A DNA stretch of 64,000 nt from Octopus sinensis (taxonomy: Eukaryota): the NCBI RefSeq assembly GCF_006345805.1, contig NC_042997.1, forward strand, positions 147,188,001 to 147,252,000, given 5' to 3'. A program made the position numbers and the translations under genes. Below, piece after piece: positions 38,321-60,299 of the stretch. Each line of letters begins with the position of its first letter. The stretch's first letter is position 1. The notes below the pieces were generated by a model. That model saw only the letters and a list, made by a program, of their open reading frames with translations, did not search any database and was not told the DNA's origin.

Positions 38321-40071
38321 CGCTTCAGATATGAATACAGAATCGCGGCAAATGCCAGTAGCAATCCAAAAACCTTCTTTGCCCATGTCCAACGGAATTC
38401 CCGCTTGAACAACCAAATTGCAACGTTGGCAGACTCAACAGGCGTATCGATTGAGGACCCTTATCAACAGAGTCAATTATTTGCCGAGGCTTTTTCAACT
38501 ATTTTCGAACAAGATGATGGTCGTGAACCCCTTCCATTTGATAGATCGGTACCTCCAATGCTTCGATTGGTCATCACGCGGGACGAAGTCGAACGCGTTA
38601 TTCAAGGCCTCGATGTCAACAAGGGTCACGGCCCTGACGGCATACACCCACGGGTTACCAAAGCGTTGGCTCCGGTCATCTGCGAGCCCTTAACACGTCT
38701 ATTCAATATGCCATTGGCGACGGGTGTTATACCTGCGGACTGGAGAACAGCGATAATCTGCCCAATTTTCAAGAAAGGGAGCCGCGAAGACCCGCTTAAC
38801 TACCGACCGGTTTCCCTTACTTCAATAATCAGCAAGATGTTCGAAACCATCCTTAAGAAAGGTATGATGCTCCACCTCCAAAACACAGCCTCTATCTCTG
38901 ATTCCCAACACGGCTTCGTGCCGAAGAGATCATGCTTGACCAACTTACTGGTAATGGAAGAATTGGTGACGCGCATCATCGATGATAGTGATACTGTTGA
39001 CATGGTTTTATTGGACTTTGCCAAAGCTTTTGACTCGGTAAACCACCGCCTATTACTTGTCAAGCTTCAAACATATAGTTTCCATCCGATATTGTACGAT
39101 GGATTGGTGCCTTCCACTCAGATCGCTCCTTCCAAGTCCAAGTTAATGGTTTGCGATCCGACGTCTCCAGTGCGAGCAGTGGCGTGCCTCAAGGTTCAGT
39201 GCTTGGGCCCTTATTGTTCTTAGTCTTCATAAATGACTTGCCCGACGACCTCACGCAACACACCCTTCTATTTGCCGACGATGTCAAACTGGTCGCTCCT
39301 GGCGGTGATATAGAGGATCTTCGTCGATGCCTCCACCAAATTTGGAGATGGTCTAACGAATGGGACCTGTGTCTGAACGTGACAAAGTGCTGTCATCTGC
39401 CTGTTGGCTCTCCTCCTGCAACTCAACTTGATTTCGAGCCGGGTCGTCTGCAGCTGGAGAGGACCAATCAGGTAAAGGACCTGGGTATCTTGGTGGATTC
39501 CTCCTTTTCGCCTTCGGCCCAGTGCATCCATGCTGCCAACAAAGCACGCGGAGTTCTGTTCTTGATTCGACGAACATTCGGAATGCTCACAGCAGCCATA
39601 TTCCTACCACTCTATGTCACGCTGGTGAGACCCATATTGGAGTACGGGATTCAAGCCTCTTCTCCTTATCTCCTCAAAGACATACAGCATCTTGAAAGAG
39701 TCCAGAAGCTGGCTACCCGCATGGTTCTTGGTTTCAAGAATTTGTCTTATGAAGAAAGGCTGAGGACGCTCGACCTTTATTCTCTAGAAAAACGACGACG
39801 CCGTGGTGATCTCATTCTTGCTCACAACATCATAAGCGGAAAGTGTAACCTCTCGAAAGAGCTGTTCTTCACTCCTGCTCCAGAGCGTCGGCTGCGGGGT
39901 CATTCCGAAAAGCTCTATCTGCGACGATTTCATCTCAATCAAAGGAGAGGGACTTTCTCCGTCCGGGTTGCGGATCCGTGGAATAAGCTGCCGGACGAGA
40001 TGGTGAATCTGCCGACGACCGCTCGGTTCAAAGTCTCCCTTGACCACAAGTGGCCTGAACTCTTTACATGA
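38321..40071 (+). pseudogene. LINE ORF2 reverse transcriptase (5'-truncated, single frameshift at ~39088)
   Basis: NPKTFFAHV, GPDGIHPR, NYRPVSLTS, QHGFVPKRSCLTNL, LDFAKAFDSVNH, [frameshift] DIVRWIGAF, SGVPQGSVLGPLLF, LFADDVKL, RPILEYG, RGHSEKL. Confidence 0.95.
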
Positions 40072-53520: not shown

Positions 53521-55109
53521 GTTCTGAATAGCTCTCAGTGTATCATGAAATCGAATATTACCTTAATATAGATTAAAGCAATCGACCAAAAAAAAAAATG
53601 TGTAACATGAAGTCTTCTATCCTCTAGAGATTCTGACAAGTAGCCTTGCCATTTCCTGAACAGAGTTTACAAGGATTCACTGTCAGAACGAAGAATGTGT
53701 GGTTGTTTGTTCCTTCTCGAGCCATGCCTAGCTAATAAGGGCCTGTTTCCTGGTTTCATTGGTGCATAGGTTCCCCGGCTGGATGGGACACCGGTCCATT
53801 GCAGGTGAGCTTCTAGATGCAGGAGGAAAGAGTGAGAGTAATTTGTGGCGAAAGAGTCAGCAGAGGTTCGACATTACCTTCTGCTAGATCCGTGTGGAGC
53901 TTGTTGTCCCCTCACCATTTTGTGTTTTGATTTCTGTACATTTCAACCACACACACAAACACAGAGTTTTATTTTAAGATGTCTTGCCAATAGGGAAAGA
54001 ATCGGTATCTATCCTAGATCCAAGGCTTCTTCATTGGAATTTCAACAACATCAACGCGTTTTTTTTACATGTATGTATATGTGTATGTGTGTATGCATGT
54101 GTGTGTGTGTGTTTGTGTGTGCAAATCAGGTGCAGTTGAACGTTAGGCGTATTAATGGTCAACTGGAATTTATACAAGATACGGGTTTAGTAATATCATT
54201 TATATTAAAGTGATGTTTAATATGGATATGAAAATATTCACTTCGACAGTTCGATGAAGTGCATATACGTGAAAGGAGATATTGCGATTAAAAAATGCCA
54301 AACATTTAGAATTGGATAAATTTTAAATGATATTGAAAATTCTTTAATAAAATTCTTAAAAACCATAGGGAAAGGATATCGCTAAGATTGTTGAATGCTT
54401 TGAATGAATATTTTAATTCACCAAGATTAATATTTGATGAGTTGAAAGCACAAGAAGGTCTGGGGAATGGCTGTAAGTTGATTTGCCATTAATATGGCTT
54501 GAATTTTATTTGGCTGTCAACTATATATAAGAACTGAAAGAGATAGTCAATCAAAATAGTAATGTGTATTTGCCTTAAGTTGTCTTCTGCAATTTTCCAT
54601 TTTAAAGTAAAATGAAAAAAGTAAAGTTGATAAGAGACTATGATAAAATAATGTGGAATATAGACTGAAATAGAATTTAAGAAATAAATATAATGCAGTC
54701 GGTTGAGTGTTTTATAGTATTAAATTGTATAAGACATTGAAAATTACAGTGTAAGATTGAAAAGTCATAGATATATAGTTAAGAATTTCTCTTAGCAAAC
54801 TAAATGGTTTCAGGTTCAGTTCCACTACACATTGGTCAACTGTTTTTTTTTTGTTTTTACTATAGCCCGCATCAGCCAATGCAATGTGAGCGAATTTGGT
54901 GAACGGAATCTGTGTGAATGTTCATTGTATACATATTTACATATAGAAAAACACACACATATGTTTATACACATACATTTATGTGTATGTATTGTGCGCG
55001 TGAATATGTCACCCTACCGCTTGAGAGCACGTGTTAAAATTAGTACCAGTGTCAAGGCGGTGAGCATGCAGAATCCTTAGATCGTAACTACGCTCTGCTA
55101 CAGTTAAAA

Positions 55110-55340
55110 GGCAGCGAGCTGGCAGAATCGTTAGCACGCCGGGAAAAATGCGTAGCCGTATTTCGTCTGTCGTTACATTCTGAGTTCAAATTCCGTCGAG
55201 GTCGACTTTGGTTTTCATCCTTTCGGGGTCGACAAATTAAGTACCAGTTACGCACTGGGGTTGATGTAATCAACTTAATCCGTTTGTCTGCCCTTGTTTG
55301 TCCTCTCTGTGTTTAGTTCCTTGTGGGTAGTAAAGAAATA
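55110..55340 (+). mobile_element. Family-1 SINE (tail A) inserted in the head of another family-1 SINE
   Basis: Imperfect 17-bp duplication GGTGAGCATGCAGAATC (55059-55075) / GCTGAGTTTGCAGAATC (55341-55357); host SINE resumes at 57020-57183. Confidence 0.8.
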
Positions 55341-55357
55341 GCTGAGTTTGCAGAATC

Positions 55358-57019
55358 ATCGCACTCTTCCGTTGTTTTACAAGGTGTACGTGAGTCATTT
55401 TTGACGGTATTTTCAGTGTTAACAACGTTTAGTTTGTTTCAGTGTTTTAACACTTCGATTAATTGTTTTTGTGCTGCTTTCCAGCAATTTTCTTGTGCTT
55501 CCCCTCCTCATAGAGGCGGGTCGGCTTAGTGAAAAAGATCTCTGAAGAAGACTCCAGCTTTTCAGATATGTCGTCTTCAGAGGAAGAATTTTTTAAAACG
55601 GTCAAAAGAATGGACGAAAAAGTAAATGAAGAAAGAGAAACTTTGCGGACTTGGCAAAGTGCCAGGAAAATATATTGATATTGGTAAATTTGAAAATTAT
55701 AAAAATTTATTAATTCTGGATGGATTTGACGTTAAATTGTTCCCCCCCCCCACACAAGAGACGTTTAATAATATGAAAAAAGAACAATGTTGTACAGAAC
55801 ATTTTCAATAATTAAAGGAAAAATTGATGTCATGACCACGGGTCAATTAGAAAAAGCGTTAAGACCAATATGGCATGAAATTGTGTACTAAGTTCGGAGT
55901 AGTGGAGGTGAGATTCAAGGACGCGGCAACAACAAAAAAGCACGCAGCAACTACCATTAAGAGGGAGGAAGTGGTGCTTTTGCTCACTTACCGTGGACAA
56001 CGTGCGACCAGAGTTAGGGTGGTGGGAAATCCGCCAGAGATAGATATGGCCTGGATAGCAGCCGCTGTCCTTCTGGGAAATAAGGGCAACATAGCGATTC
56101 TCCACGTCACAAAATGCAAAGTGTTATATGGAAGGGACAGATACTGGACATGATTATTCAAGGTTAAACCGAAACCCTAGAAAACATTACAGAAACAATA
56201 ATTACGGACGATGTGATAATGAGGTCAGGATAGAGGGCAGAATCCCTCGATGCTTTAAATGTGGCCTGAAGGGCCACATCAGAGCGGACTGCCCTTCACA
56301 GACCAAAAAGACGGAGGAGATACAAGAGGAAGAGCCCCAGAAAGAGCAAGAAAATAGAGAGGAAAAATATCAACAGAAGTAGAAATGAAACAGACAACGA
56401 ATGGGAAAGAGGAAAAAAGGAACAAGAGGAAAAGAAAAAAATCAAGCCCCATAACCACCCATCACCCACCCACAACCTCTTCAACCCACCCTTCCTCTAC
56501 AGACACCAAACCTGCCCATCTCCCTCTGACACAGAAAAATGTACAAACAGACAAGAACTCCCAAACTCCCCCGCCAGACAAAAAGAGAAAGAAACAAAAT
56601 GCCAAATGAAAAACTGTGTAAAGAAGTGTTATCTTGGGTAGACTTTAAAACAGTTGGAACAACGAGTTTTGACAGCATAAACGGATGGCACTGTTACGCG
56701 TTGTGCTCGGATGAACAGAAAGAAAAAATAACAGGATTTAAAAGCGGAGGTGAAATTGGATTGGTACGTATTACCAGAGTATATGACATATGAGGAAGTG
56801 GTGGACGAATTTGGAATAGATATTCTTTCAGGAACGAAGTTTAAAAGGTATAAATGAAGCTGCTATGAAGTGAGACAGAGTGGCTTCATTCCATTTTTCT
56901 TTTCACTTTTCATGTCATTTTTTTCATACGTTGATTCTAATTTCTTTTTCTCTGTATGTCCCCATATGTTGTGTATTGTCCCCTCTATGTTCGTCCCGTA
57001 GTGGGTAATAAAAAGATTT
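55358..57019 (+). mobile_element. ORF1-only non-LTR retroelement (Tx1-related, HAL1-like)
   Basis: ~210-bp leader, frameshifted ORF1 from ATG 55568, no endonuclease/RT, ends in the shared tail TGTCCCCTCTATGTTCGTCCCGTAGTGGGTAATAAAAAG. Confidence 0.75.
55568..56793 (+). pseudogene. Gag-like ORF1p: RRM-like region, CCHC zinc knuckle, charged/Pro-rich tail
   Basis: TRVRVVGNPPEIDMAWIAAAVL; EGRIPRCFKCGLKGHIRADCP (CX2CX4HX4C); several frameshifts. Confidence 0.8.
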
Positions 57020-57411
57020 GAATCGTTAGCATGCTGGGCAAAATGTTTAGCGGCATTTCGTCCATCTTTACATTCTGAGTTCAAATTCCGCTGTGGTCGA
57101 CTTTGACTTTCATCGTTTTCGGGCCGATTAAATAAGTACCATTTGGACACTGAAATAGATGTAATCGATTTACTCCCACCCCAATGACTACAAACAAAAA
57201 AGGTATGTATATACACATACCATTTCACACTGTATATTTATATCATACCTATATATTATACTTAATTACTATTCGTATTTTAAGATTTACTTCAGTCATA
57301 GACAAATTTCAGTGTGACACATGACTATATTTTATTTACAGTATTGTAGTCACTCAAACTGCCGACAGTGTGCTTGTAGTTGAGTATCACATTATCTTCG
57401 TTATACAAGTA

Positions 57412-58954: not shown

Positions 58955-59296
58955 TGATAATAATAATAATCTTTTCTACTAAATGCACAAAGCCTAAAAT
59001 CTGGCAGAAGGGGAATAGTCGATTGTATTGACCGCAGTGTTTCCCTCGTTCTTAATTTATGGACCCCGAAAGGATGAAAAGCAAAGTCAACCTCGACGGA
59101 ATTTGTACTCAGAACGTAGCGACGGGCGAAATGCCACTAAGCATTTCAAAAATAATAATGGTAATAATTTCAAATTTTTGCCACAAGGGCAGCTTGGGTG
59201 GGGGATTAAATCGATTACATCGACCCCAGTGCGCAACTGGTATTTATTTAATGGACCCCGAAAGGATGAAAGGTAAAGTCGACCTCGGTGGAATTT
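58707..59296 (-). mobile_element. Three consecutive family-1 SINE copies separated by (AAT)n
   Basis: ~58707-58910, 58970-59146, 59167-59296 (last two lack the head). Confidence 0.88.
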
Positions 59297-60030
59297 AAAG
59301 AAGTTGACGAAATGCAAGAAGAAGACCTCCAGGAGAAGCCACAAGAGAAGCCCCAGGATGGGCAAGAAGAGGAAAAAATGGTACCAGTAGAAACAAAAAA
59401 AGAAAGAGGAAGAATGGGAAAATACCGGAAAAAGAAAAAGGAAGAGGAAAAAGATAAGTCCAACACATACAGAATTCAAACTACAGCTATCCAAGACCCA
59501 ACCATACCCTCTTTGTCCTACTCTCGCCCTGCAGACACTAAGCCTTACCACTCCCCTCCATCACAAAAGAAAAGAAAAGAACACTTTTGACACAATTAGT
59601 CACAAATCCCTCCCCCCCATTGGCTGTTTTGCGTGTGTAATATATGATGATGAACTGTTTGAAAGGGTAATTGAATGGGAGAACACAGTTCATGTTGATG
59701 TAGAGTACGAAGAGTGTAATGGAGTAGCAGGTACGGTTCTGTTAATAACGGAACAGCAAATGATGGAAATGAAGAGACACAAAAGGGAATGTGAACTGTG
59801 GAAGACTTTAACACAGAAAAGCTACCACAGTTTATAGAATATAAAGAACTTTAAAAAGGTATGGAGTAGACATAGTGGAAAACAGAGAAAAGGAAGCAAG
59901 TAATGTTACTTGATGGGGCAAGTAACACCATTTTCATTTCACATTTTTTTCATCTTTCATTATATAATACGTTTTATGTCCCCATGTGATATATGTCCCT
60001 CTTTGTTGGCCCGTTATGGGTAAAAAAATA
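59297..60030 (+). mobile_element. 5'-truncated relative of the ORF1-only element
   Basis: DEMQEEDLQEKPQE...PADTKPYHSPPSQKK parallels EEIQEEEPQKEQE...STDTKPAHLPLTQKN; ends TGTCCCTCTTTGTTGGCCCGTTATGGGTAAAAAAAT. Confidence 0.75.
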
Positions 60031-60039
60031 TCAAAAATC

Positions 60040-60150
60040 CCTAAAAGTTTCATACAGATCCATCCAGCGGTTCTTGGGATATCTTGTCCATGGACAAAGA
60101 AACAAACACGACTGAAAACAATACCCCCGCGTTCGCTAAGGCGGAGGTAA
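60040..60150 (+). mobile_element. Possible Helentron/HINE-type terminal fragment
   Basis: CGGTTCTTGGGATATC...ACAAAGAAACAAAC...GAAAACAATACC, GC-rich hairpin, GGCGGAGGTAA end. Confidence 0.45.
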
Positions 60151-60299
60151 TAATAATAATAATAATAATGGTGATGATGAGGAAATTTTTCAGTTTCAGT
60201 GAATAAGTATGTATAAATTTGATCAATAAATAGTGAGAGAAGAGGTCTTGCTTTATTCTAAACTTGGTTTATTTCTATACATGAACCTTGCCACATTTG

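Follow-up and report, generated by a model that had tools for sequence, protein, structure and literature searches.

Why some non-autonomous LINEs keep ORF1 is an open question, and the sources consulted infer co-multimerisation from the case of HeT-A. A locus in the window, i.e., the whole 64,000-nucleotide stretch of Octopus sinensis DNA analyzed here, raises this question in a concrete form: a decayed retroelement with an ORF1 remnant and no ORF2 is followed by part of a SINE. Is it an ordinary LINE that lost its ORF2 by deletion or a member of a family, and what placed it at this site? Our reading, which we hold to be highly probable, is that it represents a dead member of an ORF1-only, non-autonomous LINE family at a fixed base of an abundant SINE, likely written by target-primed reverse transcription with the endonuclease and reverse transcriptase (RT) of a Tx1-like helper acting in trans.

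The element and its neighbor in the window

A preliminary description of this DNA reported a unit of ~1.66 kb with a leader, a gag-like ORF1 of zinc-knuckle type, a 3′ tail and SINE flanks, and without ORF2. Pfam and tblastn bear this out for a unit of ~1.65 kb with a broken ORF1 and one CCHC knuckle (Table 1). The boundaries, first placed at 55358..57019, are corrected to 55367-57018 by comparison with sister copies, and the same comparison replaces the implied 5-bp duplication by one of ~16 bp, of which the upstream copy is decayed. That the element lies in the head of a SINE is correct for its 3′ side, but the upstream neighbor is a whole tailed SINE followed by ~10 nt. The SINE is the commonest repeat of the window and makes up 8.5% of its length.

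Table 1. Features of the element, its flanks and the second copy (positions in the window)
Feature	Positions	Strand	Basis or remark
Tailed SINE monomer, full, upstream of element; last ~45 nt resemble element tail	55106..55341	+	blastn 91.5% to SINE positions 11-246; tail alignment
5′ target-site duplication copy, decayed: 1-nt deletion (55361) and substitutions	55352..55366	+	Intact 16-mer at same place in sister copies
ORF1-only element, family A copy, 1652 bp	55367..57018	+	5.4% from family majority; decayed
5′ leader with T runs	55367..55537	+	Sequence; alignment
ORF1 remnant, 13 indels; ~450-460 codons in family A	55538..56857	+	Stop 56855-56857
RRM-type region of ORF1	55775..56250	+	tblastn to intact relatives; tandem RRM fold predicted on those relatives
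Single CCHC zinc knuckle	56251..56292	+	Pfam PF00098 (zf-CCHC), E=3.4e-5, matched at 56095-56379
C-terminal domain (~97 aa in family A)	56602..56854	+	In ORF1-only relatives; in none of the autonomous elements sampled
3′ UTR, 161 nt, AT-rich; last 45-65 nt common to autonomous Tx1-like elements and tailed SINE	56858..57018	+
3′ duplication copy (57019-57034) and remainder of target SINE (SINE positions 29-186)	57019..57176	+
5′-truncated ORF1-only element, other subfamily: post-knuckle region, different C-terminal domain, tail	59296..60034	+	Similarity to L041
Different repeat, 3′ flank of second element; also flanks L041, L033, L035, L036, L038	60035..60158	+

Four ORF2 queries from autonomous relatives found no similarity within the element (best tblastn E=0.62). 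The family's first ATG reads ATC in this copy, with the next in-frame ATG at 55568, and the 13 indels in ORF1 leave no doubt that the copy is dead. There is no excess of changes of the kind left by RNA editing (11 A>G vs 6 T>C, with 615 A and 428 T).

A second element, further downstream, had been adduced as a relative of the same structure that likewise starts within a SINE. It does run from the C-terminal part of ORF1 to the tail without ORF2, and it belongs to the same clade, but it represents another subfamily with a different target. The element begins just after the knuckle region and is 84% identical to L041 over 59296-60154, running on into the same downstream repeat; its similarity to the family A element of the window is 63-70% and patchy, and no match to the family A domain was found in its C-terminus. 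In the quick tree discussed below, L041 and L038 fall within the ORF1-only clade. The supposed start in a SINE is wrong as a supporting argument: the element abuts a SINE fragment (SINE positions 85-181) that lies on the opposite, reverse strand, and its 3′ end lies in another repeat.

Further LINE remnants occur elsewhere in the window. At 30914-29760 (minus strand), a 5′-truncated autonomous Tx1-like element with the tail, its ORF2 C-terminus 55-60% identical to the helpers, stands directly behind a SINE dimer and is followed on its 3′ side by sequence other than the SINE head. At 26407-25838 (minus strand) lies a heavily decayed and distant remnant that resembles ORF1 (20-25% to the ORF1 queries), and at 38378-39411 (plus strand) a piece of a reverse transcriptase from an unrelated LINE (24% to a helper).

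Family A and its target base

A search of the 2.72-Gb genome with the window element gave 61 matches from the best 40 of 666 candidates. Among the matches scored, six copies of what we call family A span 1.56-1.70 kb and lie 12-19% apart, none with ORF2, and 16 copies that were aligned differ from their majority by 5-11%. Between the ORF1 stop and the element end lie 147-170 nt in all 11 copies that keep both, and because this distance is constant, the loss of ORF2 is ancestral. Hence the earlier proposal of a family structure, as opposed to a one-off deletion, stands: no sampled copy has ORF2 between ORF1 and the tail, and the breakpoint does not vary from copy to copy. Copies with ORF2 could nevertheless be unseen, because only the best candidates were scored (40/666 in this search and 150/13540 and 150/386 in the two described below).

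Internal deletions do exist in family A and are what might suggest that the element arose from an ordinary LINE by deletion, once or repeatedly. Those found are private to L012, L013, L014, L016 and L030 and all fall within ORF1, whereas the ORF2-less junction is shared and, among the copies sampled, the clade has no autonomous member. For these copies a deletion origin is refuted by the constant stop-to-end distance together with the 34-row tree presented below, and we regard it as hardly credible. One family A copy has a different peculiarity at its 5′ end, namely six tandem copies of a 35-bp leader unit (L004:3166-3391). On the distance scale of PMC13282606, where 0.065 corresponds to 18 My and 0.09 to 25 My, family A would have been active roughly 15-30 My ago, the transfer of this scale being a rough one.

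Insertion of family A is sequence-specific to the base, with a duplication of ~16 bp. It had been suggested to determine the share of copies inserted in SINE sequence; 13 of the 14 family A copies with a 3′ end stop at the same SINE-head base, position 29 of the reference SINE copy. At nine of these 14 junctions the sequence departs from the 16-mer AGAAWCGTTAGCACGC by no more than 2 mismatches and at four more by no more than 5, and the exception is the most diverged copy, L030, whose 3′ end lies in another repeat. The search query held none of the downstream SINE and the 3′ junctions were thus unselected; as a background, the 16-mer occurs in the window within 2 mismatches at 1.2e-4 of positions and within 5 at 4.6e-4. 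On the 5′ side, the same 16-mer precedes 8 of 11 copies within 2 mismatches and is recognizable with small indels in the remaining three, the window copy included. Since the 3′ junction is unchanged in the 5′-truncated copies L009, L011 and L020 and the remaining SINE sequence differs from copy to copy, the insertions were independent. Moreover, 6 of the 7 copies with both ends have the same A/T variant of the target at either junction, which leans, if weakly, toward a true duplication.

What kind of sequence is being hit? ARAGORN reports 0 tRNA genes in the SINE head and Rfam no match to it. By eye, and set against the consensus, the head carries motifs that we take to be A- and B-box-like, with the target site inside the A-box-like motif, so that a family A insertion would split the SINE promoter.

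The ORF1 protein and its lineage

ORF1 is predicted to adopt a tandem RRM-type fold followed by one CCHC knuckle. A model from 32 intact ORF1 cores (pLDDT 86.6) resembles tandem RRMs (Foldseek E=1e-5) and the La RRM (Z 9.5, rmsd 2.6, 80 residues aligned); a single-sequence fold of a young intact ORF1 reached a pLDDT of 39.5 and was not used. Pfam finds zf-CCHC alone in the intact ORF1s, and zinc knuckles were the sole matches when PDB sequences were searched with the ORF1 profile. According to PMC5203782, type I ORF1 is associated with the Tx1 group in non-mammalian animals, and the family A ORF1, with RRM and CCHC, is a type I ORF1 as characterized there. Its core is 43-49% identical to three autonomous ORF1s, and the named ORF1 homologues come only from Octopus bimaculoides. 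A viral Gag origin is ruled out, given that the rest of ORF1 is RRM-type and that the full-length relatives are APE-RT LINEs without LTRs.

In family A, the knuckle is followed by a charged, proline-rich linker and then the ~97-aa C-terminal domain, for which the best 150 of 386 candidates gave at least 150 matches in the genome. At the 30 best loci for this domain, an ORF1 core lies upstream in 28 and the tail within 130-520 nt in 27; ORF2 precedes the tail in none, and one ORF2 match lies beyond it. Neither the sampled autonomous ORF1s nor the young ORF1-only family introduced below contains a match to the domain. ESM Atlas returned no usable match for it, a result that bears on neither novelty nor absence.

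The ORF1 core had 13540 first-look candidates in the genome, the best 150 of which were scored. Among the 114 distinct cores in the collected loci, 57 are ORF1-only, 30 autonomous and 27 uncalled; the ORF1-only cores reach the tail mostly in 690-800 nt, and ORF2 was found before the tail in 0 of 20 further relatives. A quick tree of 107 rows has a group of 49 ORF1-only and 12 uncalled rows that includes no autonomous one. A careful tree, with 34 rows picked to cover the groups and a bootstrap not fully settled, splits 23 of 24 ORF1-only rows from the 10 autonomous rows (99/96). Judged by these sequence comparisons, family A belongs to an old, diversified ORF1-only clade. The 24th ORF1-only row forms a long branch among the autonomous rows. 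It represents family Z (L074, L075, L160), which is ORF1-only with intact frames and lies in mixed arrays with autonomous elements; family Z may be a second, independent ORF1-only origin, which the tree does not force.

Has ORF1 been maintained in this clade? A comparison of dN/dS among subfamilies, suggested at the outset, reveals purifying selection on ORF1, the values between ORF1-only subfamilies with finite dS being 0.11-0.23; two autonomous pairs gave 0.11 and 0.21, and between family A and the young families dS is saturated. The C-terminal domain has pN 0.30 and pS 0.71 over 12 loci. Within family A, two frame-intact copies give a dN/dS of 0.44-0.47 against the majority, and the 16 copies pooled give a pN/pS of 0.75 (an uncorrected count) with 18 stops, which is close to neutral decay. 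Purifying selection between subfamilies together with near-neutral decay inside family A implies that ORF1 continued to be required by the master copies long after the loss of ORF2. In this context, the structure of the copies across the genome supports the earlier view that a Tx1-like LINE gave rise to a non-autonomous family with ORF1 alone.

Helpers, target choice and known systems

In the young ORF1-only relatives ORF1 is intact and 471 aa long. These elements are arranged head to tail in arrays with a period of about 1750 bp, several of which begin in the first bases of the SINE and end in the SINE remainder. Some arrays are near-identical repeats, and arrays mix subfamilies; L203 is a solo young copy with a perfect duplication. 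A search of sequencing runs for this young family found no RNA run among those listed, and no conclusion is drawn from it.

The autonomous relatives carry APE, RT and zf-RVT domains (Pfam) and share the tail, each family having its own flanks, and they insert sequence-specifically into multicopy targets. Among solved proteins, human L1 ORF2p is nearest to the helper ORF2 (E=5.5e-69, vs E=4e-23 for R2), and no named Tx1 reference is among the 120 homologues listed; domain layout and target specificity make it likely that the helper is Tx1-like. Three 5.3-kb autonomous elements (L194-L196), 98.5-99.6% alike, lie at SINE position 29 with junction sequence on both sides, heading young arrays; they match the young ORF1-only family over 73 nt at the 5′ end and 34 nt at the 3′ end. 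The helpers observed at the SINE target are younger than family A, and it is with the young ORF1-only family that they have both ends in common. No autonomous element with the 5′ end of family A was found among the candidates scored. The family A tail, 45-65 nt of which are shared with several autonomous families, is closest to those at other targets (L159, L147). The tail-plus-target junction has 1631 exact matches in the genome and a control 0; this pattern favored young junctions, its first 30 loci being 28 tailed SINEs and 2 ORF1-only elements.

Other targets are also in use. A second autonomous family (L198, L201, L206) lies at SINE position 62 with a duplication of ~15 bp and may account for those SINE dimers whose sequence resumes at position 63. 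Yet another autonomous family (L057, L066, L071, L073, L076) is flanked by (TC)n, like Kibi.

Taken together with the structure of family A, a sequence of events can be proposed. The element RNA would be made by RNA polymerase II, because the T runs of the leader would stop polymerase III, and the element's own ORF1 protein would coat it in cis as an RNA chaperone. The helper ORF2, captured in trans, would recognize the shared tail; its APE endonuclease, and not ORF1, would pick the site and nick the SINE head, and reverse transcription primed at the nick would result in the 16-bp duplication. Since an intact target is kept at the 5′ junction, the site can be hit again, which would give rise to mixed arrays.

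The arrays could also point to another mode of spread, in which ORF1-only units travel mainly as passengers, either in read-through transcripts of helper plus array or by duplication of arrays at the DNA level. In its favor, L194 and L196 start with the same helper and the same junction series and have a first ORF1-only unit that is 98.8% identical, and near-identical repeats make up some arrays. Passengers would not give a dN/dS of 0.11-0.23, however; arrays mix subfamilies, and the family A copies examined are all single, with junctions of their own and no adjoining helper. We therefore regard passenger spread as the main route as distinctly improbable.

Helper-mediated insertion in trans leaves the question of what sets the site. 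Elements with the family A type of C-terminal domain occur at four or more different targets, and among those at the SINE target two unrelated C-terminal domains are found; young ORF1s that are almost identical occupy different targets, and along the ORF1-only tree the target changes. ORF1-only subfamilies with the family A type of domain (L030, L053, L182, L188, L215, L217, L218) have a third target repeat in common. According to PMC4494074, the endonuclease sets the targets of Tx1 elements. Because targets shift along the ORF1-only tree, because C-terminal domain and target do not co-vary, and because PMC4494074 states this rule for Tx1, the insertion site is likely set by the borrowed helper endonuclease. 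The helpers at the SINE site (L194, L195, L197) have only four endonuclease differences in common relative to their sister L156 at another target, at ORF2 positions 54, 97, 117 and 198, and a single type of 3′ tail occurs at several targets, which counts against a simple account of specificity; on this comparison the four residues are candidates for it. The 3′ flank of L197 is not the canonical target.

A role for ORF1 itself, or for a 5′ tag on the RNA, in choosing the site would account for why ORF1 and its private C-terminal domain were kept. The Gag of HeT-A at telomeres is a precedent, and the domain is conserved, with no counterpart in the sampled autonomous ORF1s. Moreover, the same non-native variant of a junction 14-mer recurs in three unlinked young arrays (L194, L205, L196, L206, L202, L065), and in both of the arrays with this variant in which the 3′ end was reached, the target there is canonical. 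Plain duplication does not explain these non-native 14-mers, and the combination suggests a 5′ junction written by the donor RNA. Against such a role, domain type does not vary with target and young ORF1s that are nearly identical occupy different ones, and the matching A/T variants at 6/7 family A copies also argue, weakly, for duplication of the local target. We consider site choice by ORF1 or a tag rather unlikely and favor the helper endonuclease.

A broader picture may be sketched tentatively, as one possibility. The octopod ORF1-only lineage would be ancient, with saturated silent sites, and a hyperparasite of several site-specific Tx1 helpers; ORF1 and its private C-terminal domain would be kept to capture the helper ORF2, and the element may bring along, at its 5′ end, a copy of the site where it last landed, as template for the next junction. 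A single SINE would then be the landing pad for two helpers (at two sites), for several ORF1-only families and for its own tailed form. In this one genome, the old ORF1-only clade exists alongside young copies that are intact, intact helpers that use the same site and closely related sister helpers that use others, and their coexistence permits direct tests of the cis role of ORF1, of the endonuclease residues that retarget an APE LINE, and of the donor RNA as the writer of the 5′ junction. A further consequence is that the most common SINE of the octopus serves as a target and is cut in its promoter-like head, something that annotations that count SINE dimers and L1-Tx1 fragments would miss.

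How does family A relate to known systems? HeT-A forms head-to-tail arrays mixed with its partner at one target, a likeness to the young octopus elements. Non-autonomous elements with ORF1 present are represented by three cases named in PMC5786205, HAL1, HeT-A and Ag-Sponge. Family A appears to work like them, with an ORF1 homologous to that of autonomous LINEs, no ORF2, a shared 3′ end and amplification by retrotransposition. HAL1 (half-L1) is mammalian and L1-derived, encodes ORF1 alone and arose more than once (PMC5753468, PMC5786205). Family A resembles it as a non-autonomous derivative of the L1 group with ORF1 alone, but it is not HAL1 in the strict sense: its ORF1 is of the RRM + CCHC type (type I) and not the mammalian type II (Transposase_22), and it inserts base-specifically in a SINE, with a structured shared tail, no poly(A) and a private C-terminal domain. 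HeT-A, with TART/TAHRE, is Jockey-derived and Ag-Sponge CR1-derived (PMC5786205). These are likewise ORF1-only elements dependent on a partner, whereas the octopus elements come from another parent clade, have a dispersed SINE and not chromosome ends as their target, and comprise many coexisting subfamilies with different targets.

In the literature searched, we found no Tx1-derived ORF1-only or SINE-targeting element, although Repbase entries or paper supplements may hold some. The octopus repeat paper (PMC13282606) gives 13 recently active L1-Tx1 families, and the terms ORF1, target and nested have 0 occurrences in its accessible text. Nearest in target use are the elements of PMC4494074, which include crocodilian Tx1-Mar with SINEU, Tx1L in Tx1D, Keno, Kibi and Koshi; the accessible text of that source names no ORF1-only partner, with 0 occurrences of the term ORF1. 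As in the octopus, Tx1 elements there target another repeat, with two hot sites inside a single target, a SINE that shares the target and tandem insertions. Their targets, in the portions of that source available, are a DNA transposon, an snRNA gene or a microsatellite, whereas the octopus target is a SINE seemingly mobilized by the same machinery.
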